Shown here: piece after piece, positions 14,782-64,000 of the stretch
Layout: the number at the start of each line of letters is the position of its first letter
How positions within the stretch are numbered: the stretch's first letter is position 1
DNA from: Myxococcota bacterium
GTDB lineage: Bacteria > Myxococcota_A > UBA796
DNA: 64,000 bases
Direction: 5' to 3'
NCBI GenBank assembly: GCA_047621685.1
Contig: JBLHNG010000001.1
Coordinates: 16,986 to 80,985, forward strand
The notes under the pieces: generated by a model
What the model saw: the letters and a program-made list of their open reading frames with translations, nothing else
The model's database searches: none
Told to the model about the DNA's origin: nothing
Program-made: the position numbers and the translations under genes

Positions 14782-15051
14782 TTAGCGGCGCAGACCCAGA
14801 CGCTCGATGAGCGCCTTGTAGCGGTTGTTGTCTACCTTCTGGAGGTAGCGCAGCAGCCGCCGGCGCTGGCCGACCAGCTTGAGAAGGCCACGACGGGAGT
14901 GGTGGTCCTTCTTGTGCGTCTGGAAGTGCTCGGTGAGGTAGGTGATGCGCTCGGTGAGGAGTGCGACCTGAACCTCGGGGGAGCCGGTGTCGTTTTCTAC
15001 ACGAGCGTACTCGTGAATGATTTCTGTCTTGCGGTTTGGGGTCATCGCCAT
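14782..15051 (-). CDS. rpsO: 30S ribosomal protein S15
   Basis: 89 aa with [16 protein letters not shown]...[20 protein letters not shown], the canonical S15 sequence. Confidence 0.95.
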
Positions 15052-15252
15052 GATATTTCTCCGGTAAGACCGGGCCTGGCAGGTGGGATGTGGTGGCGTT
15101 CCACTACTCCTTCATCATGTTGTCTTCAGAATGAAAGACACCCAGGATGAAGATCCCTGCCGCACAGGCCGGCATCAAGGAGGGGAAATTGACCCGCTGC
15201 CGGGAGGCTGTCAAGGTGCAGGGGTGTAGATCCAGCCCCGGAGCGCCCCTTT

Positions 15253-22532: not shown

Positions 22533-22685
22533 TCAGTCCTCCCCTGGCTGTCCTTTGCCGGGCGGGTTTCTGACCCAGCTCTGAAGTCTCCCTCACAAGA
22601 CCTGAAGCCCTCTGGCAAGAGCTGGACAAGATCGCTTTCAAAAAACAGAGAGTGATGTAAATTCGGGTCAACTCGGAGACCCCCC

Positions 22686-26822: not shown

Positions 26823-26890
26823 AGAAAACTCTCCCCTCTCCGACTGGCTGGTTGCTCGATTACAGTGGGAGTACCGATTCGGAGGCTACC

Positions 26891-29800: not shown

Positions 29801-30451
29801 TACGCGGACTTTGACGGAGACGGCTACGGCGACCCGGATAGCCTCACCGAGGCATGTGAGGCCCCGGGCGGCCACGTCGAGAACGGCGAAGACTGCGACG
29901 ACGGCGTCAGCTACTCCTACCCTGGCGCCGATGAGGTCTGCGACGACCTCGACAACGACTGCGATGGCGAGATCGACGAAGACGCCATCGACATGCTCAC
30001 GTACTACGCCGACAGCGACGACGACGGCTACGGCGACGCCAGCAGCGTGATGATGTCCTGCGACCCGCTCTCCGGCTTCGTGCTCGACAGCAGCGACTGC
30101 AACGACGACGCAGATTCCGCCTACCCCGGCGGCACCGAGATCCCCTACGACGGCATCGACAACGACTGCGACGGCAGCGATCTCACCGACGTCGATGGCG
30201 ACGGGTATGAGTCGGATGTGATCGGTGGAGAAGACTGCGACGATGACGATGATGTCATCAACCCCGAGGGCGACGACATCGCCGGAGACGGTGTGGACCA
30301 GGACTGTGACGGGTCTGATACACCGCTTGACGGCTCGGAAACGGACGACGACAAGGGCTCTTGTAGCTATGTCGGCGGTGGAGATGCCGGGCTCTGGGGG
30401 CTGCTGGCGGTCGCCGGTCTCCTCCGGCGTCGGCGCCGCACAGAGGCGTGA
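26891..30451 (+). CDS. Giant secreted surface protein, paralogue of 22686..26774: beta-helix/PMP repeats + MopE-type putative metal-binding Cys/Asp repeats + C-terminal sorting tail
   Basis: GTG 26891 preceded by GGAGG gives VLALLLAMPSLAATLTV, parallel to the paralogue N-terminus (the ORF track starts at TTG 26852). GGAI[YF] repeats. About 7 repeats of DCDD.D..[IV].P.A.E.CDG.DNDCDG..D. Tail GSCSYVGGGDAGLWGLLAVAGLLRRRRR. Confidence 0.85.
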   Translation: MLALLLAMPSLAATLTVSASGTYTTIQSAVTAASDGDTISISAGTYIECVDLGGLDLILIGASTSSTTVDGGGCSAGAFSMTGGETAEISDLTITNSGYSAVVVESSFLTLDNVVIESSGSVSFGRDGGAIFADSSYIEITDSVFDSNGGYYGGAIALESASALVVDDVTFTDNLGQFGAGISLKDASSADITNTTFEGGLVSVTGYGKGGAIYSYYDVEVTIDSSTFTDNDAATFGGAISMESGGSLVITSSIFDSNEILTSLAAPSSGGAIYTYDLDEMSISDSEFTDNVGYFYGGAVFANNMNDETEISDSIFSGNEIQSKRGGAVEFSAGSDLVITRCTFEDNISAEGGAALSVYQNVTLEITESTFSRNTNSSTRDAYGGAIFVYDDDNGEDLTITDSTFDDNEAALSGGALYVYGMDTVDISGTAFRNNAASGVGSSSVYYGGAANFYDVSEVNITNADVCGNEADYAGGFYMELIDAVSMKNSTMVENTAAFEGGSGYILDVTDVVIENNTFIAATGGGLYFGQTAVTFTNNVVAYTTDTYGVYAEDSDTDTDSDFTYNDWYDNGTDDTDGYFSFSTTSDGNITDEPEFNDYSEDGDCTNDDLTPAIGSPLIDAGDPAITDPDDSDSDIGAYGGQGSTAVDEDGDGYYINTDCDDTDSDINPGATEICDGVDNDCDGTVDIGSDDGDTYYADDDGDGFGDADDSSFLCEETSGYVTDDTDCDDGDSDINPDAEEVCDNEDNDCDGDIDGEDATDVTTWYLDYDSDGYGGSAYTETACDQPSGYVADSTDCDDGDSSISPGADEYCDGDDNDCDGDTDEDSALDATTWYIDFDSDGYGVATFTEISCDEPSGFVDNIDDCDDTDSSVSPDADEVCDGIDNNCDGTTDTDAIDLATWYADADGDTYGDPSDSEMTCEPSSGYVDNDDDCDDDSAEALPGGTEICDGLDNDCDGSTDDGSADISMFYADFDGDGYGDPDSLTEACEAPGGHVENGEDCDDGVSYSYPGADEVCDDLDNDCDGEIDEDAIDMLTYYADSDDDGYGDASSVMMSCDPLSGFVLDSSDCNDDADSAYPGGTEIPYDGIDNDCDGSDLTDVDGDGYESDVIGGEDCDDDDDVINPEGDDIAGDGVDQDCDGSDTPLDGSETDDDKGSCSYVGGGDAGLWGLLAVAGLLRRRRRTEA

Positions 30452-30873
30452 TGCTTCCGCTGCTGATGCTGCTGGGCTGTGACAATGCGGTCGAGGGGCC
30501 CTGGCAGGGCTTCTCGATTCACCCGGTCGTCGAGACCGGTGGCACCGCGCTGCCACAGCATGGCTCCGATACGCCCCTCCAGGTCGGCGAGGCGGTTCTG
30601 GACGGCAGCTGTGTGGCGTCCGCGAAGGTGAGCACCGACGCAGCGAGCGGATCCGCCATCCTCACCCGGTTCACTCCGAAGTGCGCCACACGGCTCGCCG
30701 ACTTCACCGGCGAGAACATCGGCCACTCCATCGCCCTGGTGGTCCGCGGTGAGGTCTACTCAGCCCCGGTGATCATGGAGCGCATTGAGGGGGGCGAGGT
30801 CTTGCTGAGCCTCGGTGGTCAGTACTCACCGGAGCAGGCTGAGCGGCTTCTTGTTGAGCTCAGTGGACCATAA
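30448..30873 (+). CDS. Small lipoprotein with SecD P1-head-like segment
   Basis: MMLPLLMLLGCDN lipobox. GHSIALVVRGEVYSAPVIMERIEGGEVLLSLG resembles the SecD periplasmic (LDG.V.SAP.I...I.GG) motif. Start overlaps the giant gene stop (TGATG). Confidence 0.55.
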   Translation: MMLPLLMLLGCDNAVEGPWQGFSIHPVVETGGTALPQHGSDTPLQVGEAVLDGSCVASAKVSTDAASGSAILTRFTPKCATRLADFTGENIGHSIALVVRGEVYSAPVIMERIEGGEVLLSLGGQYSPEQAERLLVELSGP

Positions 30874-30902
30874 GTGCATGAGTAACGCCACCTCGCAGCG
30901 GC

Positions 30903-32096
30903 TTAGCCAGCAATGTTCCACGTGGAACACACCACATGCAGCGCATGCAGTCCCGCCAGAAGACGCCGACCAGCAGCAGTGGGCTGGCCCTTCTCAGCAA
31001 CAGTAGCCAGCCCACGGGCGTTGCTCTCCAGCACCGCATCCCGCCGACGACGAAAGTGCGGAGTCTGACTGATCGGATGCCCAAGCGCCTCCAGGCGGGC
31101 ATGCATCGCCGCGACCGGAACGAAGGCATGAGCAGCCAGAAGCACGCCGGACAGCGGACGGAGGTCTGGCCGAACCGGAGAAGCGGTCCACTCGCTTCGA
31201 CCGTTCTTGAGCACCGGATCCAGCCACATCAGCGTGTTCAGCCGACTGTGCTGGGTCTCATGCACGATCGCTTCGGCCAGGGTCAGCGGATCGGGGTGTA
31301 GCGTCATCCAGGCCACCCCCGGGGCCTCCAGGTAGGACGCTGACAGGTGCATCTCCGCCTCAAAGCCCACCGGCACCAGCCGCTCCAGGCTCAGCGGAAG
31401 CTCTCGCCACCACTCCGGCAGGGCCACCGCAATCAGCGCCAGCGCCTCAGACAGCGCAGCCACCCACTCCGTCGCAGCCTTCCCGCCCAGGCTCACCGCG
31501 TTGCCAGCTTTGTCGGGGTGGTCTTCGAGCATCGAGAGCGGGTTGGTGTCCCGGGTGCTGAGGTGCAGTCGGGGGAGGTCGGGGTGCAGCGGGTGGTAGG
31601 GGCGGCGGGCGTCTTGGGGCGGGACGGAGAGCCGGGTGCCGTCGGCCAGGGCCAGCGACAGCCCGCTCGGATCGGCGACCACCACTGAGAGCGGTGCATC
31701 GATGGCGAAGCCCAGCCGCGGTGCGGACAGCCCCGGAGCGGGGTGGTCCCAGAGGATCGCCTCGGTGAGCGCACGGGCGGGCAGGGCAGCGAGGAGGTCT
31801 GGGCCGACAGCGGCGAGCTGGGCGATCGCATCGACCTGGGGGTGCGCCAGCGACAGCAGGCGCGGCAGCACATCGGGGGCACCGATGGCGGAGAGGGTGG
31901 CAGCCGGGTGGCGTCGGGCGGTGTCGGTGAGCACCGGACGCAGTCGAATCAGCGCACTTCGCAGTGTCGGCGGAAGGCCATCGAGGGGCCAGGTCAGCAG
32001 CCGACGCAGGGCCAGGAGGCGAACCTTACGCACGAGCCGGGGCCAGGAGCTGTCCGATGCCGGGAGCGTGAGAAAGGCGGAGGGGAGGTCGAGCAT
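30903..32096 (-). CDS. HExxH-motif protein, aKG-HExxH-type peptide beta-hydroxylase-like (TIGR04267-like)
   Basis: LAEAIVHETQHSRLNTLMWLDP motif in a ~400-aa soluble protein, transcribed divergently from a radical SAM operon. That context is typical of this family as I recall it. Confidence 0.7.
   Translation of the reverse strand: MLDLPSAFLTLPASDSSWPRLVRKVRLLALRRLLTWPLDGLPPTLRSALIRLRPVLTDTARRHPAATLSAIGAPDVLPRLLSLAHPQVDAIAQLAAVGPDLLAALPARALTEAILWDHPAPGLSAPRLGFAIDAPLSVVVADPSGLSLALADGTRLSVPPQDARRPYHPLHPDLPRLHLSTRDTNPLSMLEDHPDKAGNAVSLGGKAATEWVAALSEALALIAVALPEWWRELPLSLERLVPVGFEAEMHLSASYLEAPGVAWMTLHPDPLTLAEAIVHETQHSRLNTLMWLDPVLKNGRSEWTASPVRPDLRPLSGVLLAAHAFVPVAAMHARLEALGHPISQTPHFRRRRDAVLESNARGLATVAEKGQPTAAGRRLLAGLHALHVVCSTWNIAG
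30910..30931. promoter_or_regulatory. Copy A of 22-bp motif GCAATGTTCCACGTGGAACACA (perfect 16-bp palindrome TGTTCCACGTGGAACA at 30914..30929)
   Basis: Identical 22-mer also at 50253..50274. Read directly. Confidence 0.4.
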
Positions 32097-32150
32097 GGCG
32101 GCTTTATATCAGCCGACCCCGACAGCCCGAGGCAAGGCGTTGTGATACCG

Positions 32151-33482
32151 ATGGGTATGGATCACGCCGAGGAGAACCACCGCACCAAGGGGCTGACCCG
32201 GCTGACCATGGCCTGCAATGAGCGGTGTCCGTTCTGCAACGTGCCGATGGAGGACTACCCTCGCCTCACGCCGCCGGAGTCCGAGGTCCTCGCCGAGCTT
32301 CAGAGCTTCTTCGACAGCGGCGCGCAGACCCTGACCATCTCCGGTGGCGAGCCCACCCTGCTGAGGCGCCGGCTGCTGTCGCTGGTCGACAAGGCGCGGC
32401 AGGGCGGCATCCGCTCCATTGAGCTGCAGACCAACGCTGTGCTGATCGATGGGGCCTACGCGACAGATCTCGCTGAGGCTGGGCTGACCAGTGCGTTCGT
32501 CTCGCTGCTCTCTGAGAGCGCTGAGCTGCACGACCACCTCGCTGGCCTCCCCGGCGCCTTCCCCCGGTGCCTCGCGGGCATCGACGCGCTGATCGCGGCG
32601 GGGGTGTCCGTGACGCTCAACCCGGTCATCGCCTCTGCGACCCAGGCGCGGGTCGTGGACTACATGCGCTTCGTCGTGCAGCGCCTGCCGGCAGTGCGCT
32701 CGATCTCCCTGTCCGCAGTGCAGCCCCATGGCCGGGCCGCCGACAACCTCGATCTCCTGCCCGACTACGGCGTGCTCGCTCAGCAGCTTCCGGAGGCCCG
32801 ACAGGTCGCTCAGGCTGCTGGGGTCACCGTGCTCAACCCCTACTGCGGGCTGCCGCTGTGCGTGGGCTGGAGCGGTGACCTGGGGCAGTGTGTGGAGGCC
32901 GCAGAGGCCCGTGACGGCGGCTGGCGGGCGCGTCCAGGCATCGACAACCAGGGCAACAAGTCCCACGGCGCGGTGTGTGGTCCCTGCGTGCTGCGTCCCT
33001 GGTGTGGTGGCGCCTGGCATGCCTACTGGCAGCATCGGGATGGCGCGGGCATCGCACCCCCGGCCGAGCGGATCCCGCCGTGGCGTGCTGGAGCCTCGAC
33101 GGCCCCCTGGCAGTCGGTGGTCTCCGCGCCCGGTGGCTTGACCGATGCCGCTCGGACCGCACTTCAGTCCGCCGAGACCCCGACGATCTGGCTGTGGACG
33201 GATCGGCTGACCCGGGCAGATGTCGTGCCGCTGCTGACCTCCCGCTGCACTGCGGTGGGGCTGGAGGTGGTGGCTGACGGGCTGGCCTCCGGTGCTCGCC
33301 CCGACTGGCTCCGTCCGCTGCGGGCGCTGCTCCGTGGTGGCTGTGCGGCCCACCTCGCGGTGCGTCGGCCGCTGCTGGCAGGGGATCGTCAAGCGCTGGC
33401 AGCGCTGGCGGACCGGCTCGGGGTGACCGGAGTCGATGTGCTTCCCGAGAGACAGCATGCTTCCAGCACGGCAGGGGCCTGA
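32151..33482 (+). CDS. Radical SAM protein with partial SPASM/twitch-like C-terminal Cys motif (rSAM1)
   Basis: LTMACNERCPFCNV (CxxxCxxC), ISGGEPTLL, ELQTNAVLI, CGPCVLRPWCGG. Start taken at ATG 32151 (GTG 32142 is also possible). Confidence 0.85.
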   Translation: MGMDHAEENHRTKGLTRLTMACNERCPFCNVPMEDYPRLTPPESEVLAELQSFFDSGAQTLTISGGEPTLLRRRLLSLVDKARQGGIRSIELQTNAVLIDGAYATDLAEAGLTSAFVSLLSESAELHDHLAGLPGAFPRCLAGIDALIAAGVSVTLNPVIASATQARVVDYMRFVVQRLPAVRSISLSAVQPHGRAADNLDLLPDYGVLAQQLPEARQVAQAAGVTVLNPYCGLPLCVGWSGDLGQCVEAAEARDGGWRARPGIDNQGNKSHGAVCGPCVLRPWCGGAWHAYWQHRDGAGIAPPAERIPPWRAGASTAPWQSVVSAPGGLTDAARTALQSAETPTIWLWTDRLTRADVVPLLTSRCTAVGLEVVADGLASGARPDWLRPLRALLRGGCAAHLAVRRPLLAGDRQALAALADRLGVTGVDVLPERQHASSTAGA

Positions 33483-33483
33483 C

Positions 33484-34947
33484 ATGAGACAGCGACTTCC
33501 CCAGCCGATGTGGGTCGACATCGGCGGCACGACCCGAAGCCCCGAGCGTCTGGATGTGGTGCCGGCCCCAGCGCGCTCCACGGAAGGCCTCCGCAGTGAC
33601 ATCGCCGCCGCCGGGCGTCACTGGATGCTCACCGGCGGCGAGCCCACCCTGCGTGCAGACCTCTTAGCGCTGCTCTCCGGTGGCGGAATCCGCACCGACG
33701 GCCTCCTCCTCAGCCGCCCTGATGCCCTCGCCACCCTCCAGCGCGCCGGACTGAAGCGCGTGCGCATTCGCATCCACAGCAGCCGTCCCGACGCCCACGA
33801 CTGGCTCTCTGGAACGAAGGGCTCGCTTCGGCACGCCCTGAGGGGGCTCCAGGCATGCACCCGCGCGGGGATTCCCGCGGAGGTCGAGATCGTGCTCACC
33901 CGACCCACCATCGGCCACCTCGACGAGACCGTCGCTCTGGTGACCCGGCTGGGTGCTCGGGGGGTGGCGCTGCGTCGGCTCACCGCTCAGGGGACTGCAG
34001 CGGCGGACTTCATCGCCCTCTCCCCGCGCCTCGGTCTGCTGAGTGCCCCCCTGGAGGATGCAATGGCCGCAGCGGATGCGGCTGGTGTTCCGGCCTGGAC
34101 TGAGGGAGTGCCGACCTGCATGGCGCCCGCCTCTCGGCTGCGAGCGACGCCGACCGGGCGCACTCCGGGATGTGCAGACTGCCCGGCGGACTGCCCCGGC
34201 TACCCAACCGACTACGCAGAGCGCTTCGGGCTCGCGGAGCTGTGGCGGGTGGCTGGAGCGCCGTCCCGGGAGCAGATCCGGGTGGTGATCTCCCCAGACG
34301 AGGCCACCCGGGATGTCCGCCGACGCCTGGTCGCTGCTGCAATGTGTCGTCCAGAGACCCTGCGGGTGGTCGGGGCCGCATCTCACCCCGCACGGTCCGA
34401 CCTGCTGCGAGAGCTGCTGCGCCTGTCGGTCTCCAGTGTCGAGCTGTGTGGAGTGATGGATGGGCTCGCCACCCTCTCCGGGGCTGATCAGCTCCGGCTG
34501 CGTGGATTTGCCCGCATCGACGCCGCCCTCCTCGGCAGCACCGCAGCAACCCACGATGCCGCGGTCGGTCGTCCCGGTGCGTTTGATGCGGTGAAGCAGC
34601 TGCGCAATGTGACGTGTTACGGCATCGTGCGATCCGCTGAAGAGGCCGCTGCGTTCGTCTCCACAGGGGTCACCGATCTGAGGCTCGCCGAGCCGGGCGG
34701 CACCCTCACCTCGCTGTCTGGCATCGCCGCGCTGGCCCCTCTGATCCCGCCTTGTCTTGGTGGCAGCGGCAGCAGCCCGCCCCCTGCCGAGGACTTTCAC
34801 GGCTCCACCCCCGCCGGTCGGCAGGGCTGCTCCACAGACCGCATCGGCGCCACCACCCCCTGCCCCCACGCCGCGCGCTGTTCCGCAGCCGATCGCTGCC
34901 CGGGGCTCGCGGTTGGCTGGGATGCAGAAGGCGTGACACCGCTGTGA
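33484..34947 (+). CDS. Radical SAM-fold paralogue lacking the CxxxCxxC motif (rSAM2, probably catalytically degenerate)
   Basis: Retains MLTGGEPTLRADL, RIRIHSSRPDAHDWLSGTKGSL and CADCPADCPG. The N-terminal 60 aa contain no Cys (MWVDIGGTTRSPERL replaces the cluster loop). ATG lies 1 nt after the rSAM1 stop. Confidence 0.7.
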   Translation: MRQRLPQPMWVDIGGTTRSPERLDVVPAPARSTEGLRSDIAAAGRHWMLTGGEPTLRADLLALLSGGGIRTDGLLLSRPDALATLQRAGLKRVRIRIHSSRPDAHDWLSGTKGSLRHALRGLQACTRAGIPAEVEIVLTRPTIGHLDETVALVTRLGARGVALRRLTAQGTAAADFIALSPRLGLLSAPLEDAMAAADAAGVPAWTEGVPTCMAPASRLRATPTGRTPGCADCPADCPGYPTDYAERFGLAELWRVAGAPSREQIRVVISPDEATRDVRRRLVAAAMCRPETLRVVGAASHPARSDLLRELLRLSVSSVELCGVMDGLATLSGADQLRLRGFARIDAALLGSTAATHDAAVGRPGAFDAVKQLRNVTCYGIVRSAEEAAAFVSTGVTDLRLAEPGGTLTSLSGIAALAPLIPPCLGGSGSSPPPAEDFHGSTPAGRQGCSTDRIGATTPCPHAARCSAADRCPGLAVGWDAEGVTPL

Positions 34948-35008
34948 TGCTGCCACTCACCCTGGAGACAGAGGGCAAGTGGCCCCCACCTGCGATAGGA
35001 TCCGCTCA

Positions 35009-36814
35009 ATGAACCTTCGCGACACGATGCTGGAGCGCGAGCAGATCGCCAACCGCCGCAAGCACTGGGTGCGTGCAGTCACCGCCTGCAACAGCCGCTG
35101 TGTGTTCTGCCTGGACATGGACACCCCCCGCAACGTCTTCCTGCCCATCGAGGAGGTCCAGGCGGAGCTGCAGCGCGGTCGGGAGGAGCTGGACGCCGAC
35201 AAGGTGATCATCTCCGGCGGCGAGGCATCGCTGCATCCGTCGTTCCACGAGCTGGTCCGCTATGGACGCAGCATCGGCTACGACCGGGTCCAGACCGTCA
35301 CCAACGGCTGGAACTTCGCCGAGCGGGACTTCTACCGAGAGGCCATGGCTGCCGGGCTCGGCGAGATCACCTTCAGCCTCCACGGCCACACCGCCGAGCT
35401 GCACGACCGGCTCACTCGCCACCACGGCTCGTTTGCCCGGCTGATGAAGGGCATGATCCGGGCCATCCGCGATCCCCGCGGCCCGATCGTCAACGTCGAT
35501 GTGGTGATCAACAAGCAGAACGTCGGGGTGCTCGACCGCATCATCGAGCTGTGCATCTCCGTCGGCGTGACTGAGTTCGACCTGCTCCATGTCATCCCGC
35601 AGTCTGAGGCATACCGGAATCGTGAGGACCTGTTTTACGATGTTCGCGACCACATGGACGTGCTGCATCGGGTCTTCCGACTCAACCGCCATCCCCGGCT
35701 GGTGATCTGGACCAATCGCTTCCCGATCTCCTACCTGGAGGGGCTCGAAGACCTCATCCAGGACCCCCACAAGATGCTCGACGAGGTCAACGGCCGCCGC
35801 TTCCAGGTCCGCCGCTATCTCGACACCGGCGAGCCCCTCGACTGCCGCCAGCAGGAGCGGTGCGTGCACTGCTTCATCGAGCCGTTCTGCACCACCATGG
35901 ACCGGGTCATCACCACCCAGCACGCCGGGGGCTTCGAGGTGTGGCAGGGCGAGACACAGGGAGAGGATGCGGGTGAGCTGCCGTTTGGCTGCACCCGCTG
36001 GGGACAGACCGCCGCCTCCTGGGACGACGTGCAGTGGCCGGATGTCGGCGGGCTGGAGCTGACCGGAATGGCCGCTGAGCCCATCCCCCGGGCGCTGCCG
36101 GTTCCGGTTCGGATGATCGCCGATCACCCCGACCAGCTCACCGCCTGGCTGAGCGGTCCGCTGCCAGCGCTCGTCGAGGTCGAGGTGGTGCTCAACCAGG
36201 TGACCGCCCCCTGGCTGATGAAGCACCGCGAGACACTGCTCCCACTGCTCGACAGCCTCCGCATTCACCAGCCCTCCCACACGAAGCTGGCCGGGGCCAT
36301 GAAGCAGGATGTCCGCAATCCAGGTGGATTCTTCACCCGACTCGCGCTGCCGATCCGGGTCAGCGGTCTGCCCGCCTGCCTCACCACTGGTGCGGTGGTG
36401 GTCTCGCCCGTTGCTCGCCTCAGTCCGGCCCTGTTCGACCCCGAGCTGGGCCGCCTGGACTCCCGGGCACTCTCTGAGCACCACATCGAGCAGAACTACC
36501 GGGCGAAGTCCGAGCGCTGTCGGGATTGTGCAGTGACCAACGCCTGTGACGGCATCCACGTCAACATGATCCGCGACCAGGGGCTCGCCCTCGCCCGCCC
36601 CCTCGCGCAGGCCCCTGCCGTACACCCGCCCATCGGGGTTCGCATCGCCGAGGGCTGTCCCCCGCTGCCCCCCGCAGAGAGCCTGCCTGGGTTCGCGCCC
36701 CCCCAGGCCCCACCCCGCGATCCCCTCTCCGTCATGGCCGAGCAGATAGACGCCCGCCGCGAGGCCAAACGGGTGGCCCGGAAGAAGATGCTCGCTGATG
36801 CAAGGGAGAGCTGA
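35009..36814 (+). CDS. Radical SAM protein with two SPASM-like Cys motifs (rSAM3)
   Basis: VTACNSRCVFCLD, ISGGEASL, FSLHGHTAELHDRLTRHHGSF, CVHCFIEPFC, CRDCAVTNACDG. Alternative GTG start at 34979. Confidence 0.85.
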   Translation: MNLRDTMLEREQIANRRKHWVRAVTACNSRCVFCLDMDTPRNVFLPIEEVQAELQRGREELDADKVIISGGEASLHPSFHELVRYGRSIGYDRVQTVTNGWNFAERDFYREAMAAGLGEITFSLHGHTAELHDRLTRHHGSFARLMKGMIRAIRDPRGPIVNVDVVINKQNVGVLDRIIELCISVGVTEFDLLHVIPQSEAYRNREDLFYDVRDHMDVLHRVFRLNRHPRLVIWTNRFPISYLEGLEDLIQDPHKMLDEVNGRRFQVRRYLDTGEPLDCRQQERCVHCFIEPFCTTMDRVITTQHAGGFEVWQGETQGEDAGELPFGCTRWGQTAASWDDVQWPDVGGLELTGMAAEPIPRALPVPVRMIADHPDQLTAWLSGPLPALVEVEVVLNQVTAPWLMKHRETLLPLLDSLRIHQPSHTKLAGAMKQDVRNPGGFFTRLALPIRVSGLPACLTTGAVVVSPVARLSPALFDPELGRLDSRALSEHHIEQNYRAKSERCRDCAVTNACDGIHVNMIRDQGLALARPLAQAPAVHPPIGVRIAEGCPPLPPAESLPGFAPPQAPPRDPLSVMAEQIDARREAKRVARKKMLADARES

Positions 36815-37872
36815 TGGCCAACCTCGGCTACCTCCAGCTCACCCGCAACTGCGTCCAGCGCTGCCGGTTCTGCAGCAACCCGCCCACCGGGGTCGAGCTG
36901 ACCGAGCCCCAGATGCGGGGCCTCATCGATGAGCTGGTCGACCTGGGCTACGACGGGGTCATCCTGACCGGCGGCGAGCCCAGCTACTCCCCGCTGCTGT
37001 TCCCCGCCCTGAAGTACGCCACCGAGAAGGGGCTGTACAACCGGATGATCACCAACGGGCAGCGTCTCGCGGAGCCGGACTTCTTCCAGAAGTGCGTCGA
37101 TGCCGGGCTGTCCCACATCCACGTCTCGCTGCACTCCTGCCGTCGGGAAGTCCACGACTACATCACCCGCTACCCCGGGGCCTATGATGTGCTCGTCCGC
37201 TGCCTGGAGTTGGTGCCGAAGATGGGCATCACCTGTGACATCAACACGGTAATAAACACGTATAACGCTGATCATCTCCATGAGACGGTCCAGTGGCTCT
37301 GTGAGCGGTTCCCGTTCATCCGCCACTTCGTCTGGAACAACATGGACCCGGACGGCAACCGCGCGGAGGACAACCCCGACTGCATCGCGTTTCACCATGA
37401 GTTCCAGGTCAGCCTGGAGCTGGCGATGGACTACCTCTCCCGCACCGGACGCACCTTCCGGGCCGAGCGGGTTCCGCTGTGCTTCATGCGGCGCTACGCC
37501 CACTGCTCGACTGAGACCCGCAAGATCGTCAAGGAGGAGGAGCGCTGCATCCAGTTCCTCGACAACAAGGGCTTCGTCCACCAGCTGGAATTCCTGCACG
37601 GCAAGGGAGACGCCTGCAATGCGTGCCGCTGGGACGGCATCTGTGCAGGCATGTTCTCGATGGCGCGGACTTTCGATGAGCGGGAGCTGTCGCCGATCTT
37701 CGAGGATCCCCTCCCGGTCATTCGGGCGGTGCTCGGAGAGGAGCCCACCCCGGCCCTTCTGGAGCGGATCGAGGCCAGGAAGGGGCGCCGAAGCACCACC
37801 GAGCAGCCCGACGAAGAGACGCGGGGTGCGTACCGGATGCTGCCGCTGTTCCGCTCAGCGGTGAGAGAGTAG
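36814..37872 (+). CDS. Radical SAM protein with SPASM-like Cys motif (rSAM4)
   Basis: LTRNCVQRCRFCSN, LTGGEPSY, ITNGQRL, VSLHSCRREVHDYITRYPGAY, CNACRWDGICAG. ATG overlaps the rSAM3 stop (TGATG). Confidence 0.85.
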   Translation: MANLGYLQLTRNCVQRCRFCSNPPTGVELTEPQMRGLIDELVDLGYDGVILTGGEPSYSPLLFPALKYATEKGLYNRMITNGQRLAEPDFFQKCVDAGLSHIHVSLHSCRREVHDYITRYPGAYDVLVRCLELVPKMGITCDINTVINTYNADHLHETVQWLCERFPFIRHFVWNNMDPDGNRAEDNPDCIAFHHEFQVSLELAMDYLSRTGRTFRAERVPLCFMRRYAHCSTETRKIVKEEERCIQFLDNKGFVHQLEFLHGKGDACNACRWDGICAGMFSMARTFDERELSPIFEDPLPVIRAVLGEEPTPALLERIEARKGRRSTTEQPDEETRGAYRMLPLFRSAVRE

Positions 37873-38552
37873 CGCCACGGCGATGTTGTCCTCACCGCCA
37901 TGTTCCAGGGCAGCGGTGGTCAGGTTGATCGCGGCCTGTTGGGCGGTGCCCCCGGTGGCGATCTGGCCGACCTGATGGGCGGAGAGAGTGGGGATGTTGT
38001 AGCGGCACTCGGGCAGCCCATCGGATGCCAATATGATCCGATCACCAGCCTGTAACGAGTACTCTCCCGTGCTCACTGACAGCAACCTCCAGTCCCCGAG
38101 GTAGCGCCCTTCCAGGGGGTTGAGCACCACCGTCTGCTCCGAACGGAGTCGATAGAGCCGGCAGTCTCCGATGGAAGCCCAGCTGAGCCAGTCCTCCTGA
38201 ACCACCACCGCCAGCAGCGCGCAGGCTGAGGAGCCAAGCAGCACCCGCCGGTTGATCTTCGAGAGCCGCCCCTTCAGCCAGCCGATCGGATCGTTGTCTG
38301 GGGGGGAGGACATCGCGGCATACAGCAGGGCGTCGACCGCAGTCTCCGCAGAGCTGCGCCCGAAGTGAGCGTCTGCGACCACTGCGACGGAGGCACCGGA
38401 CACGGTGACCACACCGCAGGAGTCTTCGTTGGGATCCTGCTTCGGCGCCGGACTCTCCAGACCCCGACACAGGGCAAGCCCCCAGCCGCCGTGCTCGGCG
38501 TGCTGGATGGTGCCATATTCGATGCAGTCACGCCCATGAAGGACGGCAGGCT

Positions 38553-38556
<4 letters not shown>
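37855..38556 (-). CDS. PP2C-family Ser/Thr protein phosphatase
   Basis: NEDSCGV, VADAHFG, ILASDGL and GGEDNIAVALL motifs. Confidence 0.85.
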
Positions 38557-39560
<1,004 letters not shown>

Positions 39561-44863: not shown

Positions 44864-45257
44864 CGAAGTAGCCCTCTTCAGTCACGCCATCCTGGGTCAG
44901 CGCGAACTCAATCGTCCAGTGGCCGGTCATGTGGAACAGGAGCGGGGTGGCGGTGAAGGTACCGTCGCCGTTGTCGGTGACTTCCGGGGTGACGTTCATG
45001 CCGTGCCCGTGGCTGGTCATCACCGCATCAAGTTCCACGGAAGCACCCGTTAGCGGTGTGCTTCCATCGGACTCAAATGCGGAGAGGGTCACCGAGAAGT
45101 AGTCATCGTTGGGGATGGAGGTGGGGTCGGTGGTGTAGGAAGCCATGAACGAGCCGCCGTCCGTGGCAGCGGTGGTGGTGAAGTTGGTCTCCACCACGCT
45201 CCCAGAGTCGCCCTCTTTGTCTCCACAGCCAATCAGCATGGCAAGCATCCACATCAT
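44844..45257 (-). CDS. Small lipoprotein, YtkA/FixH-like
   Basis: MMWMLAMLIGCGD lipobox. MTSHGHGMNVTPEVTDNGDGTFTATPLLFHMTGHWTIEF resembles the YtkA-like domain. Overlaps the peroxidase gene by 20 nt. Confidence 0.55.
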   Translation of the reverse strand: MMWMLAMLIGCGDKEGDSGSVVETNFTTTAATDGGSFMASYTTDPTSIPNDDYFSVTLSAFESDGSTPLTGASVELDAVMTSHGHGMNVTPEVTDNGDGTFTATPLLFHMTGHWTIEFALTQDGVTEEGYFDVECCE

Positions 45258-45316
45258 TGCTCTCCTCCTCGTTCATGTATCTGGCACCTTCGATACGGCC
45301 ACACGCTACCTCTGGA

Positions 45317-47747: not shown

Positions 47748-47777
47748 CCCAGGCAGTATAGGACCACCCGCGCGGGG

Positions 47778-59518: not shown

Positions 59519-60694
59519 ATGAGGGCCATGCTCGGGGATCGCAGTCTGTTCCCGGACCTCTCCTGGGAGGTCTACCTCAACCACGCTGCGATCTCTCCGC
59601 CCTCCACCCCGGTCCTCCAGGCTGCAGCAGCGGTGTCGCAGTCCTATGCATCACAGGGTGTTACGGCATTCCCGATTTGGATGGAGTCCCGGGAGGTTCT
59701 GCGTGGAAAGCTCGCCCGCCTCATCCATGCCGCACCCGAAGACATTGCCCTGACTGCCAACACCACCGCCGGGGTGATCGCGGTGGCCAATTGTTTCCCG
59801 TGGAACAATGGGGACGGTGTGGTGGTGTTCTCTGGGGAGTTTCCCACCAACGTCACCCCCTGGCAGCAGGCTGCGCGCAGCTTCGGGCTTCGGCTCACTC
59901 AGCTCTCCCTGGATGGCTTCGGGGATGGCAGCGGCGCTGGGCTGGCTCGGCTGGAGGCGGCGCTGAAGCAGGGCGTGGTGCTGGTGGCGGTCAGCGCGGT
60001 GCAGTTCCAGACCGGACTGGCCATGCCGATCAAGGCGATGGCCGACCTCGCCCACCGCTACGGTGCTCAGCTGTTCGTGGATGGCATCCAGGCGGTCGGT
60101 GCGGTCGAGCTGGATGCACGCGATGTGGACTACCTCGCTGTTGGCTCTCACAAGTGGCTGATGGGCATCGAGGGCTGTGGGTTCCTCTACGTTCATCCCG
60201 ATCGCATCGGCGCGTTGGTGCCGCGCATGGCCGGCTGGTTGTCCCATGACGACGGGCTCGGTTTCTTGTTCAACGGCGCGGGACACCTCCGCTATGACCG
60301 GCCGATTCGCCGTCGGGCCGACTTCTTAGAGGCCGGGGCATACAACTCGGCGGGCTTCCAGGCGCTGCTCGCCTCGGTGTCTCTCATCGAACACCTTGGT
60401 GTTACGGCGATCTTTGCGCACATCACCGCCTACCTCGACGCCCTGGAGCTCGGCCTGCTCGCCCAGGGCTTCACCAGCCTTCGAGCACCCGATCCCGCTG
60501 CGCGCTCGGGCATCCTCAGTGTGCTTCCGCCAGAAGGGGTGGATCTCCTCCAGCTCGCTGAGGCCCTCGCCGCTCGTGGCATCGGGGTGACCACTCCTGA
60601 CGGGCGCCTGCGGTTCTCGCCACACTGGCCCAACAGCCTCGATGAGGTCCCGGTGGTTCTGGCGGCAACCGAGGCCGCGATCAGATCGGCGTGA
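59519..60694 (+). CDS. Class V aminotransferase / cysteine desulfurase-like PLP enzyme
   Basis: YLNHAAISP, ALTANTT, and SHKWLMG (PLP-Lys context). The 3' end overlaps the convergent rSAM gene by 14 nt. Confidence 0.8.
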   Translation: MRAMLGDRSLFPDLSWEVYLNHAAISPPSTPVLQAAAAVSQSYASQGVTAFPIWMESREVLRGKLARLIHAAPEDIALTANTTAGVIAVANCFPWNNGDGVVVFSGEFPTNVTPWQQAARSFGLRLTQLSLDGFGDGSGAGLARLEAALKQGVVLVAVSAVQFQTGLAMPIKAMADLAHRYGAQLFVDGIQAVGAVELDARDVDYLAVGSHKWLMGIEGCGFLYVHPDRIGALVPRMAGWLSHDDGLGFLFNGAGHLRYDRPIRRRADFLEAGAYNSAGFQALLASVSLIEHLGVTAIFAHITAYLDALELGLLAQGFTSLRAPDPAARSGILSVLPPEGVDLLQLAEALAARGIGVTTPDGRLRFSPHWPNSLDEVPVVLAATEAAIRSA

Positions 60695-61721
60695 GCCCGT
60701 CGTCGCCCCAGATGTCCAGGTAGTTCTGCCAGACTCCCTCGCACAGGTCGGCCCGGGTGCAGGTGCTGCAGGCTTTGGGGTGGCCCTTGAGGTCGTGGCG
60801 CTTGCGGTCCTGCCAGTTGAATCGGGCGCGACCGCCGTCGATTCGGGTCACGCCGTCGACCTCACCGTCGCCGTGCTTGTCGCTTCGGATCGAGCAGTCC
60901 GTAGACAGGTCGCGGTACTCGCCCATGTACTTCTTCAGCAGCCGCTCGCTCCGGCGTAGCTCCACCGGCAGCACACAGAGGGGGAAGCCGCCGAAGGTGA
61001 AGGTCTTCTTGAAGTGGAACTCGTTGAGCAGGATCGCTTTCTGGAGGATGGGCACGACCTTGTCGTACTGTGGGGTCAGGGAGCGGCTGCCCTCGGCGTA
61101 GCCCTCGGGGCGCACGAAGTTGACCCGGATGTCATCCAGCTCCAGCTCATCATAGAAGAACCGCATCATCTTCGGCAGATAACGGTAGTTCCAGCCGTTC
61201 AGGACGACGTTGATGGCGAGCCCATCGGGCAGGTAGCCGGCGGCACGCTTGGTGTTGAGGTAGCGGATGGCGGTGCACTTCTTCTCGAAGTTGCCAGGCA
61301 CCCGGGTGAGCCGGTCTTCCAGCGAGGCGGTGTGGCCATGCATGGAGATGGTGATTCGGGTCAGCCCGGCGTCGAGGATGCGGTCGGTGAAGTGCGTGAG
61401 GCGCAGCTTGGTGGCGTTGGTGGCGATGGCGATGCGGGTGAAGCCGATCTCCTTGCCATAGGCCACGGACTGCACGATCTTCGGGTAGGTCGTGGGCTCT
61501 CCACCCAGAAAGCCCAGCGAGCGGTGCCCGGCTGCGTGCCACTGCCGGATCTCCGCCTGCATCTGGTCAAACGGCATGTAGCTGCGGTCTTCTTTCTTGG
61601 GCAGACCGTCGAGGCAGAACACGCAGCGGTTGTTGCACGCCTTGCCGATGTTGATCTCGACGTTGCGGCGGACATCCCGGAGGGGGTTGTACAGCTGGTT
61701 GGCGGGGTGTTCTTCAGCCAT
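60681..61721 (-). CDS. Radical SAM protein with SPASM-like Cys motif (rSAM-C, third maturase of the HxS operon)
   Basis: IGKACNNRCVFCLDG, LGGEPTT, IATNATKL, ISMHGHTASLEDRLTRVPGNF, CSTCTRADLCEG, C-terminal ...DGLTPI. Confidence 0.85.
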   Translation of the reverse strand: MAEEHPANQLYNPLRDVRRNVEINIGKACNNRCVFCLDGLPKKEDRSYMPFDQMQAEIRQWHAAGHRSLGFLGGEPTTYPKIVQSVAYGKEIGFTRIAIATNATKLRLTHFTDRILDAGLTRITISMHGHTASLEDRLTRVPGNFEKKCTAIRYLNTKRAAGYLPDGLAINVVLNGWNYRYLPKMMRFFYDELELDDIRVNFVRPEGYAEGSRSLTPQYDKVVPILQKAILLNEFHFKKTFTFGGFPLCVLPVELRRSERLLKKYMGEYRDLSTDCSIRSDKHGDGEVDGVTRIDGGRARFNWQDRKRHDLKGHPKACSTCTRADLCEGVWQNYLDIWGDDGLTPI

Positions 61722-61730
61722 AAGCTCAGC

Positions 61731-62690
61731 CTATCCCAGAATCGGGGTCAGATCGGTGGTCGGCCACTTGCGGGCATATTCGTCGAACACCCCCATGCAG
61801 ACGCCGCGAAGGGTGCAGCCCTCGCACTGCGCGACATGGACTCGCTTGCGGTCAGGTGCCCAGGAGTAGAGGCCCTCGAACTTCACCGAGCCGGGGTGAG
61901 CGGTCCACTCCACGGTCACCCGGGGATCCCAGTGCAGATCGTTGGACAGCGCGCGGTGGCTGCCCAGCAGGCACATCGGCACCCCGAAGAAGCGCAACAC
62001 GGCGGTCTCTGCGGCGGACACGGAGCGGGGCAGGACATCGGCGAGCACACTCAGCGGCACCGCGAGGTCTTCGTAGGCATCGAGCCCTGCGCCCTCGGGG
62101 GTGGTGTTGGAGACCACGATGAGCTTCGCGCCCAGCGAGTCCGCCAGGGCGATGGTCTCGGGGAGCTTCTCAGCATTGTGACGGGTGATCACGGTGTTGA
62201 TGAAGGCTCCGAAGTCTCCTCGAAGCGCGATACAGCGGCGGATTGCCTCGGTGACCCGGTCGAAGCTGCCCTCGCGGCGGGCGAGGGCGTCGTGGGTGGC
62301 GGCATCTGGGCCGTGCAGGGAGAACAGGCCCTCGTCGAGGTACTCGATGACCGTCTCTGCGAAGCCTGGTCGGGACAGCATGGTGCCGATGGTGCCGATG
62401 GAGGTGCGCATCCCCAGCTTCTTGGACAGCCGGAGGACGTCGAGAAAGCGGGGGTGTATCGTCGGCTCACCGCCGGTGAAGTGCACCCCGTCTCCGCCCC
62501 GGGCCGCATGTCGACGCAGCACGGTCGCCGCCCGCCCCCAGGTCACCGGGAAGCGCTTGAAGCGCTCCATCCGGTGCTCCTCGGAGCAGAACACGCAGCG
62601 CTCCGGGCAGGTGTAGGTCAGGTGCAATTCCAGCCGGCGCATGATCTGACCCTCAGGGCCGATCCAGGGAGTGAGGTTCTGCTCGGTCAT
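61731..62690 (-). CDS. Radical SAM protein with SPASM-like Cys motif (rSAM-B)
   Basis: LTYTCPERCVFCSE, FTGGEPTI, FSLHGPDAATHDALARREGSF, CEGCTLRGVCMG, C-terminal ...TDLTPI. ATG 62690 overlaps the upstream stop (ATGA). Confidence 0.85.
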   Translation of the reverse strand: MTEQNLTPWIGPEGQIMRRLELHLTYTCPERCVFCSEEHRMERFKRFPVTWGRAATVLRRHAARGGDGVHFTGGEPTIHPRFLDVLRLSKKLGMRTSIGTIGTMLSRPGFAETVIEYLDEGLFSLHGPDAATHDALARREGSFDRVTEAIRRCIALRGDFGAFINTVITRHNAEKLPETIALADSLGAKLIVVSNTTPEGAGLDAYEDLAVPLSVLADVLPRSVSAAETAVLRFFGVPMCLLGSHRALSNDLHWDPRVTVEWTAHPGSVKFEGLYSWAPDRKRVHVAQCEGCTLRGVCMGVFDEYARKWPTTDLTPILG

Positions 62691-63649
62691 GCCGCTCCCC
62701 TCCGCTTTCGATAGGCACGCAGCGCGGGGTAGAGCCCGCGACACAGCCGGGTCAGCTCTGCATCGACCGCCATGGTGGACTGCCACACCTTCTCTGGGAG
62801 GTGAGTCGCCAGCAGCCCGTTGATCGCCTCGGCTTTCTCGGCGAGGGCCTCGGGAGTGGGCGGGTCATCGAGGGTGCCGATGGTGGTCTGATCGCGGAGG
62901 TGGTCCAGGGTGCCGGAGAGCCCGACATTGGAGGGGTGGATGGTGCGGTCGGAGTCGACCACGAAGCCGGTGTTGAAGAACGGGGTGGGTGCCTGGGTGA
63001 ACAGGTTTCGCAGGTAGAAGTGTCGACCGGAGCGCCAGCGATCCTCGATGATCCCTCGGATGGCGTCGAAGGAAGCCGCCAGCGCGGCGAGCTGGTGGGT
63101 CTTCCAGGGGATGTAGTAGCCGGGGAGCAGGTTGAACCGGTAGAATCCAAGCGACAGCAGGTGGCTCAGGTTGTCGGCGGCCCGGCTGGCGGTGGCGGGC
63201 GGGATGGTCTGGGTGATGACCAGCCGGGTGAGGGTGAGCAGCGACTCACGCAGGGTCATCAGGTGGTCGTAGGCGTCCGCGACTCCAGGCAGTGCCCGAC
63301 GCATTCGGCGGTGATCTTCGGGCGCACCGTCCATGGAGATGGTCAGGATTCCCTTCTTGTAACCTCGGAGATACTCGATCCACTCCGGCGTGAGGCCGAG
63401 ACCGTTGGTGGAGAGGTAGACCCGCCGGATCTCCGGACGATCTCGGGCGGCCTCCATCGCGGCCCGGACCACCTCAGGGACCAGCAAGGGCTCGCCGCCA
63501 AACAGCTTGACGTCACCGCCGCCGTATCGATCGGCGAACAGAGACACCGCCAGCCGGGCGTCGTCCGGTGTCAGGGAGGGCCAGCCGTCTTTTGCCGTGG
63601 GGCAATACGAGCAGCGGAGGTCACAAGCCCGGGTGACGGTGAGAATCAC
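62687..63649 (-). CDS. Radical SAM protein without C-terminal Cys cluster motif (rSAM-A, first maturase after the HxS precursor)
   Basis: VTRACDLRCSYCP (CxxxCxxC), LFGGEPLL, LSTNGLGL, ISMDGAPEDHRRMR. GTG start 12 nt after, and in the same frame as, the precursor stop. Confidence 0.85.
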   Translation of the reverse strand: MILTVTRACDLRCSYCPTAKDGWPSLTPDDARLAVSLFADRYGGGDVKLFGGEPLLVPEVVRAAMEAARDRPEIRRVYLSTNGLGLTPEWIEYLRGYKKGILTISMDGAPEDHRRMRRALPGVADAYDHLMTLRESLLTLTRLVITQTIPPATASRAADNLSHLLSLGFYRFNLLPGYYIPWKTHQLAALAASFDAIRGIIEDRWRSGRHFYLRNLFTQAPTPFFNTGFVVDSDRTIHPSNVGLSGTLDHLRDQTTIGTLDDPPTPEALAEKAEAINGLLATHLPEKVWQSTMAVDAELTRLCRGLYPALRAYRKRRGAA

Positions 63650-63661
63650 AGGTGAACCGGT

Positions 63662-64000
63662 TTACCACTGCCCGTGGGAGCCGTGGGAGCCATGGGAGCC
63701 GTGAGAGCCGTGAGAGCCGTGAGAGCCGTGGGAGCCGTGGGAACCATGAGAGCCATGAGAGCCGTGGGAACCATGAGAGCCGTGGGAACCATGAGAGCCA
63801 TGAGAGCCATGGGAGCAGTGAGAGGCATGAACCACGCCGGCGGTCGCTGGATCCGCGAGCAGGGCATCGGCCTTCAGCAGCAGCTCGCCGGAGTGATCCT
63901 TGCGGCAGGCCTGCTGGCGCTCAGATGCCTGGAGGTGGTCGGTGGCTTTGCGGGTGAGGGTGGGCAGCTTGGGAGCAGCCTTCTCGGTCCTGGTGCTGTC
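63662..64000 (-). CDS. His-Xaa-Ser repeat protein (HxsA-like RiPP-type precursor), 5'-truncated by the window edge; absent from the ORF track
   Basis: Manual translation of the minus strand (codons phased on 63662): ...KAAPKLPTLTRKATDHLQASERQQACRKDHSGELLLKADALLADPATAGVV-HAS-HCS-(HGS)x15-HGQW-TAA. The frame is open to base 64000. All inter-repeat nucleotide differences are synonymous in this frame only. Confidence 0.75.
   Translation of the reverse strand, partial: DSTRTEKAAPKLPTLTRKATDHLQASERQQACRKDHSGELLLKADALLADPATAGVVHASHCSHGSHGSHGSHGSHGSHGSHGSHGSHGSHGSHGSHGSHGSHGSHGSHGQW
63677..63829. repeat. 17 tandem 9-bp units encoding HxS triplets
   Basis: + strand units [ga]ga-[ga]c[ca]-[ga]tg, counted one by one: 15 HGS, 1 HCS, 1 HAS. 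Confidence 0.95.

Follow-up and report, generated by a model that had tools for sequence, protein, structure and literature searches.

What do peptide-modifying enzymes act on when no precursor gene lies beside them? This question is raised by a locus at positions 30903–37872 of a 64,000-nucleotide stretch of DNA from a Myxococcota bacterium (GenBank assembly GCA_047621685.1, contig JBLHNG010000001.1, positions 16,986 to 80,985 of the forward strand), which we refer to as the window and whose numbering gives all coordinates below, except where the label of another locus precedes them. Here a gene for an α-ketoglutarate (aKG)-HExxH-type oxygenase faces four tightly packed plus-strand genes of the radical S-adenosylmethionine (rSAM) family, for which we use the working names rSAM1 to rSAM4. 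An initial annotation of this DNA had described that arrangement and had claimed that no precursor gene sits at either end of the block, and both statements agree with the coordinates read from the sequence. It had also left the substrate open, naming among its candidates a His-Xaa-Ser (HxS) protein encoded 26 kb away, a 21-codon open reading frame (ORF) inside the block, and the large proteins encoded nearby.

Comparison with related genomes suggests that these five genes are probably the accessory half of an expanded HxsA4-type HxS maturation system in Myxococcota-type bacteria, that they act within that system, and that the gene set most likely modifies a peptide made of repeated Ser-His-Gly (SHG) units. 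The canonical system, known as HXS and comprising HxsD-HxsB-HxsC-HxsA, is that of E. coli, Klebsiella and Pseudomonas (Haft & Basu 2011; Li et al., Nat Commun 2026, PMC13128918). At the level of gene neighbourhood, comparative genomics shows the module to be linked to HxsA4, HxsB and HxsD; for any specific chemistry on HxsA4, which we propose by analogy, our confidence is much lower.

The module lies beside Hxs genes in related genomes

About 185 loci related to rSAM3 were present in contigs from a collection holding one genome per species, and 80 were kept for analysis (labelled L and a number), all of them from metagenome-assembled genomes (MAGs). Their labels are mostly Myxococcota, Polyangiaceae, Sandaracinaceae and Deltaproteobacteria, with some Binatia and a few others that look like binning names. 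Orthologues of rSAM4 are found in 64 of the 80 loci, of rSAM2 in 54 and of the HExxH gene in 37, and rSAM1, present in just 15, is accessory. The HExxH gene occurs together with rSAM2, rSAM3 and rSAM4 in 30 loci, and all five genes stand in the order of the window in 11 other loci; the five-gene set that the initial annotation treated as a unit thus recurs across genomes.

When the genes neighbouring the module were clustered into families (given c-numbers), a second conserved gene set emerged beside it. This set includes HxsD (47 of 80 loci), HxsB (45), a protein with a signal of the twin-arginine translocation (Tat) type that we call c11 (45), and an HxsA with (SHG)n repeats (36). The family assignments in the relatives rest on curated profiles: HxsB reaches 482.6 bits against TIGR03978 (cut-off 370), HxsD reaches 50.1 bits against TIGR03976 (cut-off 50), and HxsD-like proteins pass NF038315. 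Many of the 80 loci lie on contigs too short to show Hxs genes; of the 49 loci that span 15 kb or more, 36 have Hxs genes adjoining the module, and the HExxH gene, rSAM2 to rSAM4 and HxsB are found together in 21 loci. By our own estimate, and taking the genome to be ~10 Mb long, a single Hxs copy would fall inside a 20-kb window by chance in ~0.2% of cases.

Where the full system is contiguous, the HExxH gene faces rSAM1 (if present), rSAM2, rSAM3 and rSAM4, followed by c11, HxsD, HxsB, HxsA4 and two or three further rSAM genes (c7, c19, c30). The locus L070 illustrates how closely these genes can be joined: rSAM2-rSAM3-rSAM4-c11-HxsD-HxsB-HxsA-c7-c19 are separated mostly by gaps of 0–12 nt or short overlaps (12 nt and a small overlap across rSAM4, c11 and HxsD; 9 nt between HxsB and HxsA), with one gap of 223 nt before HxsB. 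A second arrangement, rSAM2-rSAM3-rSAM4-c6-c18-HxsD-HxsDrel-HxsB with gaps of 3–22 nt and the HExxH gene downstream, is found in L056 and L073. The HExxH gene lies divergently upstream in 29 loci, after HxsB in 8, and upstream of HxsD in L126 and L140; it therefore stays with the cluster in three different positions.

The reciprocal test, in which metagenome contigs were searched with an HxsB alignment and the best 80 loci re-annotated, gave two groups. In the closer one (HxsB identity of at least 51%), the precursor ends in a QW tail and the gene order is c11-HxsD-HxsB-HxsA-c7-c19, with or without c30. Of the 17 loci that offer 5 kb or more of sequence upstream, about 11 have the rSAM3/rSAM4 module as a neighbour, and five of these carry the full arrangement of the HExxH gene facing rSAM2, rSAM3 and rSAM4. 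In the more distant group (HxsB identity of 42–47%, SW tail), close orthologues are often absent, yet rSAM4-like genes (48–50% identity) lie directly upstream of HxsD, or rSAM3-like genes (35–41% identity, C-terminal domain included) lie near HxsD-HxsB. The association thus persists across deep divergence and rearrangement, and such persistence is, in our view, genomic evidence of the strongest sort that a function is shared.

Several proteins of these relatives deserve a brief description. The c11 protein (for example L070:5562-6119) has ~190 amino acids and is always encoded immediately upstream of HxsD; an invariant N-terminal RR precedes a hydrophobic stretch, as in Tat signals, and the motif ARVHLC..G.P.G..H...DLVLMNGG.G is present, with no match in Pfam or NCBIfam. 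The c6 protein (L044:12933-15245), encoded after rSAM4 in systems with SW-type precursors, is a double radical SAM protein of 770 amino acids with two CxxxCxxC motifs, its first half weakly similar to B12-rSAM/HpnJ proteins and its second half HxsC4-like. Directly after c6 is encoded another rSAM, c18 (L056:10741-11715).

An HxsA4-type precursor and further rSAM genes at the far end of the window

The window itself contains the corresponding second gene set, 26 kb from the five-gene block and on the opposite strand. The precursor gene (63662..64000, minus strand) is truncated at its 5′ end by the edge of the window; its product (63662-63997) scores 96.9 bits against the HxsA4 model NF038313, for which the cut-off is 55, and consists of a leader, then HCSHG(SHG)n, then a QW end. 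The leader aligns with those of 37 homologues. Across the family it is ~55 amino acids long and well conserved (..LP.L.R.P.DFL...E..Q....KAD.LL.DP.N.G....HC), and is followed by SHG units and then by a tail of QW or SW. The number of units varies between genomes from 4 to 49, as seen also in L031:16172-16888 and L018:12560-12943, although assembly collapse may affect these counts; L009 has two HxsA genes (13741-14133 and 14824-15477) with 19 and 42 repeats.

Three radical SAM genes, all on the minus strand, follow the precursor gene in exactly the order seen in relatives. The first, c7 (62687..63649, 320 amino acids), starts 12 nt after the HxsA stop and occupies the canonical HxsC position, as it does in 21 related loci. 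The second, c19 (61731..62690, 319 amino acids by an independent gene call), encodes an HxsC/HxsC4-like protein and comes after c7 in 18 loci. The third, c30 (60681..61721, 346 amino acids), is HxsC4-like and follows c19 in 7 genome loci and several metagenome loci. The system is thus split in the window, with the HExxH gene and rSAM1 to rSAM4 at 30.9–37.9 kb and HxsA-c7-c19-c30 from 60.7 kb to beyond 64 kb; c11, HxsD and HxsB of the source genome presumably lie just past the window end. Since the window HxsA passes the HxsA4 model and is followed by c7, c19 and c30, it is taken as the orthologue of the gene that stands beside the module in most relatives. Of the statement that the substrate could not be named, the part concerning a local precursor holds, for there is none at either end of the block, and the rest can be narrowed down: synteny in relatives strongly favours the HxS protein 26 kb away.

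Two other features lie between or beside the halves. Minus-strand genes at 43574-47876 encode a MauG-like di-haem cytochrome c peroxidase and a pair of M16 peptidases, typical candidates for RiPP processing (RiPP, a peptide made on the ribosome and modified after translation); they are syntenic only in L002, a relative with 85% identity, and were set aside as conserved partners. A gene similar to those of class-V aminotransferases and cysteine desulfurases (59381-60694, plus strand) is divergent from c30. Its product might provide the numerous rSAMs with Fe-S clusters; the gene recurs only in L005, where a homologue with 47% identity follows c19, and it was likewise not retained as a conserved partner.

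Organization of the five-gene block and the mini-ORF

In the window, which has a GC content of 62–70% and whose proteins are entered at NCBI and JGI under a Myxococcota MAG, the oxygenase gene (30903..32096, minus strand, 397 amino acids) is separated from rSAM1 by a divergent spacer of 54 nt (32097..32150) that includes the AT-rich sequence TTTATATC; the limits of the spacer and its AT island were correctly described in the initial annotation. Homologue alignments of the HExxH protein begin at residue 1. On the plus strand, rSAM1 (32151..33482, 443 amino acids) ends in a TGA stop and is followed after 1 nt by the ATG of rSAM2 (33484..34947, 487 amino acids), as had been reported. Two other in-frame ATGs, at 33436 and 33508, are available to rSAM2, and an independent gene call on a Logan contig, which gives the same genes, places its start at 33508. 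The rSAM2 stop (34945-34947) does overlap an ATG at 34947, as the annotation had noted, although this ATG is out of frame with rSAM3 and opens instead a mini-ORF of 21 codons (34947..35012, plus strand; MLPLTLETEGKWPPPAIGSAQ). As the TGA of the mini-ORF in turn overlaps the rSAM3 start at 35009 (ATGA), rSAM2 and rSAM3 are linked via a relay ORF. The stop of rSAM3 (35009..36814, 601 amino acids) and the ATG of rSAM4 (36814..37872, 352 amino acids) overlap as TGATG at 36812-36816, again as described, and the 3′ end of rSAM4 shares 18 nt with the convergent PP2C gene (37855-38556) that the annotation had placed there. A scan of 30300-38700, the 54-nt spacer included, for sites resembling the sigma-70 consensus gave no promoter-like site, and a terminator scan of the same region gave one terminator-like site, with no excess over shuffled sequences; both scans are uninformative for this GC-rich organism.

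This layout bears on a simple explanation of the locus, namely that it is a self-contained RiPP cluster whose unconventional precursor is encoded locally, by the mini-ORF or by another unannotated small ORF. The mini-ORF is coupled exactly, stop to start, on both sides, and L002 has an ORF of 20 codons at the same position (MLMALQIGSDQLRTAVGSAQ). However, the two peptides share only their first two and last five residues, their middles (PLTLETEGKWPPP and MALQIGSDQLRT) being unrelated; the stretch conserved at the 3′ end falls on DNA that lies immediately upstream of the rSAM3 start; and inspection of 13 more distant loci found no such ORF in any of them. The peptide is thus not conserved in the way the initial annotation's suggestion of it as a substrate would need, and the mini-ORF was rejected as a precursor; it is at most a translational-coupling relay. 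Nor is there space for anything else: with intergenic stretches of 54, 1 and 61 nt and one overlap, the block has no room for a further gene. We therefore give almost no credence to a precursor hidden within the block, and return to the HxsA4 peptide as the probable common substrate.

The HExxH protein

The profile, motif and predicted fold of the HExxH protein all agree with the assignment to TIGR04267 (IPR026337) that the initial annotation had made. The protein scores 97.6 bits against a cut-off of 40, with residues 215-383 covering the model from end to end (1-177 of 177), and its HETQH motif at residues 279-283, together with the downstream segment SPVRPDLRPLSG, aligns with the matching segments of two solved family members (PDB 22nu and 8s5f). 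The residues specific to the family are present on alignment: H279, E280, H283, the stretch S306-P314 (SPVRPDxRP), R309, D311, R313, P314, G317 and H323 are invariant in 27 orthologues. An AlphaFold2 model (pLDDT 92.5) matches only two PDB entries at E <= 0.001, namely 22ob (SjiH, TM-score 0.66) and 8s5f (the HExxH domain of ChlBH, TM-score 0.57–0.69), in keeping with the distinct zincin-like fold of that domain. By profile hidden Markov model, motif and predicted fold, then, this is a bona fide member of the aKG-HExxH family. As far as the account in PMC12636437 goes (citing Morishita et al., Nat Chem 2024), the family member ChlH acts on a peptide in which a cyclophane is already present, β-hydroxylating His and Asp; other members hydroxylate Phe, Gln and Pro (PMC13060819).

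Three active-type rSAM proteins and a pseudo-rSAM

All four plus-strand proteins match the radical SAM profile PF04055 above its gathering score of 29.5 bits (rSAM1, 62; rSAM2, 35.7; rSAM3, 56.4; rSAM4, 87.3), and they share 23–34% identity with one another. Their best NCBIfam matches are HxsC or HxsC4 in every case, and they group with maturases of peptides or proteins, not with a small-molecule pathway. An N-terminal CxxxCxxC (CNERCPFC at residues 22-29 of rSAM1, CNSRCVFC at 27-34 of rSAM3, CVQRCRFC at 13-20 of rSAM4) and a later CxxCx5C are present in rSAM1, rSAM3 and rSAM4. None of the four proteins matches the SPASM profile PF13186 at E <= 0.01. The rSAM/SPASM label used in the initial annotation therefore has no counterpart in Pfam and comes down to the CxxCx5C motif; this motif, like the CxxCxxxC of rSAM2, is in sequence terms compatible with an auxiliary cluster.

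The four proteins that had been described as paralogous enzymes comprise three enzymes and one conserved pseudo-rSAM. The match of rSAM2 is limited to model positions 46-163; the protein retains a GGEP motif and the C-terminal CxxCxxxC, and it is homologous to rSAM3 over the barrel core and the Cys motif (hhalign probability 98%). In none of 26 family members, the window copy included, is a CxxxCxxC found upstream of the GGEP-type motif. Because this motif is lost in all 26 while homology to rSAM3 is kept, we class rSAM2 as a conserved pseudo-rSAM; the alignments suggest that it is a separate lineage from the same HxsC-like stock as rSAM3. There is a parallel in TIGR04347, a pseudo-SAM/SPASM family of Haloarchaea, in that rSAM2 also keeps the fold signature of rSAM proteins without CxxxCxxC, but it matches that family weakly (41.9 bits, where 525 is the cut-off).

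The signature enzyme of the module is rSAM3, which has more than 120 full-length homologues at 55–85% identity. Its model (pLDDT 88.3) has PDB fold matches confined to the N-terminal ~230 amino acids, where the RiPP maturases SkfB and SuiB are among the closest folds. Further Cys motifs lie at C279/C285/C288/C294 and, within a rare C-terminal domain of ~300 amino acids, at C504/C507/C513. This domain (residues 301-601, 35909-36811 in the window, with two further Cys motifs) has no PDB match beyond the rSAM barrel; a search among 1.84 billion proteins gave 170 cluster representatives at E <= 0.001, and in full-length representatives (~550–620 amino acids) it sits in the C-terminal half. The most conserved member of the module is rSAM4, with 67–93% identity across relatives; its gene is usually directly 3′ of rSAM3, and its CxxCx5C is formed by C268/C271/C277.

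Evidence against the Hxs assignment and a small-molecule alternative

Several observations weigh against placing the five genes in an Hxs system, and they are best considered together. The linkage is, in the end, guilt by association, and it is not found everywhere: no Hxs gene lies within 10 kb of the module in 13 of the 49 long loci, and the halves that are 26 kb apart in the window are likewise split in L002, its closest relative, so that co-transcription is not universal. In L004 and L012, orthologues of rSAM3 (58–63% identity, at 10001 in each) stand alone: the 10 kb to each side contain no rSAM4, rSAM2, HExxH or Hxs gene, so that in some genomes the parts of the system can evidently lie entirely apart. 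Although HxsC and HxsC4 are the best-matching families, membership was rejected for rSAM1 to rSAM4, every score being far below the cut-off: 91.6, 48.2, 75.4 and 87.2 bits against HxsC (TIGR03977, cut-off 267.9), and 61.3, 36.2, 86.4 and 63.8 bits against HxsC4 (NF038332, cut-off 500). Profile-profile comparison found no HxsD-like domain in rSAM2, rSAM3 or the HExxH protein (probability 0.2–0.3%), and no leader-binding domain of another kind came to light in them. The small-molecule enzymes BlsE, viperin and MoaA are also among the closest folds of rSAM3, and rSAM3 and rSAM4 are, to judge from their 52–93% identity among relatives, unusually conserved for RiPP tailoring enzymes. Finally, the sole experimental Hxs chemistry is a change of +8 Da in E. 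coli, not the −2 Da of a cyclophane (PMC13128918).

Some of these observations also favour a pathway for a small molecule or cofactor that is independent of HxsA and whose proximity to Hxs genes reflects shared regulation only: the conservation of rSAM3 and rSAM4 is at levels like those of housekeeping proteins, the rSAM3 barrel is as similar to BlsE, viperin and MoaA as to RiPP maturases, no leader-binding domain was found, and rSAM3 alone is flanked by 10 kb free of the other genes in L004 and L012. However, the substrates reported for aKG-HExxH enzymes in the two accounts cited here are solely peptides (PMC12636437, PMC13060819), the rSAMs have HxsC and HxsC4 as their best family matches, and across dozens of lineages the module forms tightly packed operons with HxsD, HxsB and HxsA, whose gene order takes several forms. 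On balance we regard such an independent pathway as very unlikely, and maturation of HxsA4 as the probable role of the module.

Large secreted proteins near the module

Directly upstream of the block lie two plus-strand genes for giant proteins, at 22656-26774 and 26852-30451, with 12 and 7 putative copper-binding motifs of the MopE type (PF11617), respectively, as well as β-helix and PMP repeats. In ~15 loci of relatives, other large secreted proteins, rich in Ig and PKD domains and belonging to families c9 and c22 (L032:11917-16539 and L010:4693-6960 among others), are encoded within the cluster, either following rSAM4 or separating it from rSAM3; no relationship links them to the giant proteins of the window. 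The possibility that such neighbours are the targets of the module draws on these positions and on the presence of homologues of the second giant protein at the same upstream position in L002 and L005. Yet no single large-protein family accompanies the module: c9 and c22 are unmatched in the window, and homologues of the second giant protein occur in only about 8 of 80 loci, at varying positions. Repeat proteins of this sort are very common in such genomes. The giant MopE-motif proteins were accordingly rejected as the substrate for want of consistent co-occurrence, the initial annotation's suggestion of a large neighbouring protein finds no consistent link to the module, and we consider targets of this kind scarcely credible. 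Whether the placement of a His-rich peptide system beside surface proteins with metal motifs is more than chance is a separate matter; it may or may not be coincidence. Elsewhere in the window, at 18450-20387 (plus strand), a single protein of 645 amino acids combines VKOR, DsbA/thioredoxin and FGE-sulfatase-like domains.

Comparison with known systems

The expanded HxsA4-type system resembles canonical HXS in having an HxS repeat substrate, an HxsB rSAM (TIGR03978, met in the relatives), an HxsD partner, and additional HxsC-like rSAMs on the same protein. It differs in that none of its proteins reaches the HxsC cut-off; in its size, as it counts, instead of four genes, as many as seven active members of the rSAM family along with a pseudo-rSAM, an aKG-HExxH oxygenase and a Tat-signal protein; and in its occurrence in Myxococcota-type MAGs rather than in Pseudomonadota. 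With the canonical HxsA model TIGR03979, whose cut-off is 121.65, related precursors score just 17–20 bits, and the window copy gives no match.

Among curated families, the nearest are the NCBIfam models for HxsA4, HxsC4 and HxsD-like proteins: the window precursor passes HxsA4, and several rSAMs match HxsC4 best. Since these models exist, curators have evidently seen this precursor class. HxsC4 (NF038332), however, is described as rare, and the rSAMs here reach 36–121 bits against its cut-off of 500; moreover, among the matched families no model pairs HxsA4 with rSAM2, rSAM3, rSAM4 or the HExxH oxygenase. A literature search on SHG repeats, HxsA2, HxsA4 and HxsC4 found no paper within the library that it covered. 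Because no enzyme of the five-gene block reaches a curated Hxs cut-off and that search gave nothing, we describe the finding as an expanded Hxs system whose extra module (the pseudo-rSAM, rSAM3 and rSAM4, with or without rSAM1, and the aKG-HExxH oxygenase) is undescribed.

The triceptide pathways of ChlBH and of the minviopeptin enzyme MicB provide a different kind of comparison, in that one ribosomal peptide is modified jointly by a radical SAM enzyme and an aKG-HExxH hydroxylase. The HxS triad is moreover a proven cyclophane site (HAS in MicA, PMC12912966), and ChlH hydroxylates His within such rings, as far as PMC12636437 relates. In contrast to those pathways, the rSAM and HExxH proteins here are encoded by separate genes rather than fused, the rSAMs are HxsC-like and carry no Pfam SPASM domain, and the proposed substrate repeats one triad dozens of times.

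It is also worth considering what the whole system is for, and in particular whether it is an anti-phage defence like E. coli HXS, in which the five genes add modifications to the effector; this would be compatible with the favoured assignment to HxsA4 maturation. Canonical HxsD-B-C-A blocks the entry of phage DNA and requires HxsA matured by rSAMs (PMC13128918), and the Tat-type signal of c11 points to a periplasmic component. Nonetheless, the gene content and order differ from those of the HXS anti-phage system and the repeats are Ser-His-Gly, while HxsA4 has neither a peptidoglycan-binding domain nor basic HxS repeats. In addition, the deep divergence with conserved content is unlike the patchy pattern of defence islands, and PADLOC-DB 2023, which is older than the HXS paper, gives the five proteins weak viperin-like rSAM matches or none. 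The published HXS survey, for its part, places 99.7% of systems in Pseudomonadota and finds 99.8% to consist of four genes (PMC13128918). A role in defence therefore seems to us unlikely, though less so than a function apart from HxsA; the system may instead have a housekeeping or metal-related role.

A possible sequence of modifications

If the five genes do act within the expanded Hxs system, a working model can be put forward largely from precedent. HxsA4 would be a cytoplasmic peptide and the common substrate of all the enzymes. Read in a suitable register, (SHG)n amounts to His-Gly-Ser triads placed end to end, on which HxsB and the HxsC-like rSAMs, including rSAM1, rSAM3 and rSAM4, might install radical modifications or cross-links. 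The closest precedent for this step would be a three-residue His-to-Ser cyclophane, such as the His5-Ser7 ring that the rSAM MicB forms on the His-Ala-Ser (HAS) motif of MicA (PMC12912966). In E. coli, HxsB, HxsC and HxsD mature HxsA by a modification whose mapped site is an S-H-R-S-S motif; HxsD is also a binding partner of HxsC (PMC13128918). The pseudo-rSAM2, without a radical-generating cluster, may serve as a non-catalytic partner or scaffold of rSAM3. The aKG-HExxH enzyme would act last, hydroxylating β-carbons of the peptide already cross-linked, with His as its likeliest target.

Significance

The four-gene HXS system was recognized as a source of an rSAM-matured anti-phage effector only in 2026 (PMC13128918). 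What is described here is a much larger relative, found at about 185 loci in a collection with one genome per species, in which the precursor is a minimal, perfectly repetitive Ser-His-Gly peptide and is accompanied by up to eight rSAM-family genes and an aKG-HExxH oxygenase. Because the repeats are identical and the enzyme genes separable, the system offers a clean test bed for how Hxs-type rSAMs act on His-Xaa-Ser, for what a pseudo-rSAM contributes, and for what an HExxH oxygenase adds. The case also has relevance for genome mining of split clusters, in that a cluster apparently lacking its precursor could be resolved through synteny in relatives.

One can also imagine, as a bolder and unlikely proposal, that this is not a defence island but a lineage-wide, vertically kept pathway, in which up to seven rSAMs, a pseudo-rSAM scaffold and an aKG-HExxH oxygenase act through a poly(Ser-His-Gly) peptide of 4–49 units to make a new RiPP product. 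If that were true, the product might consist of hydroxylated His-Ser macrocycles, dozens of them and all identical, arranged like a ladder, for example as a metal-binding or structural polymer of the periplasm, or the peptide might be a multi-core precursor from which a single small His-derived cofactor or metallophore would be released in many copies.

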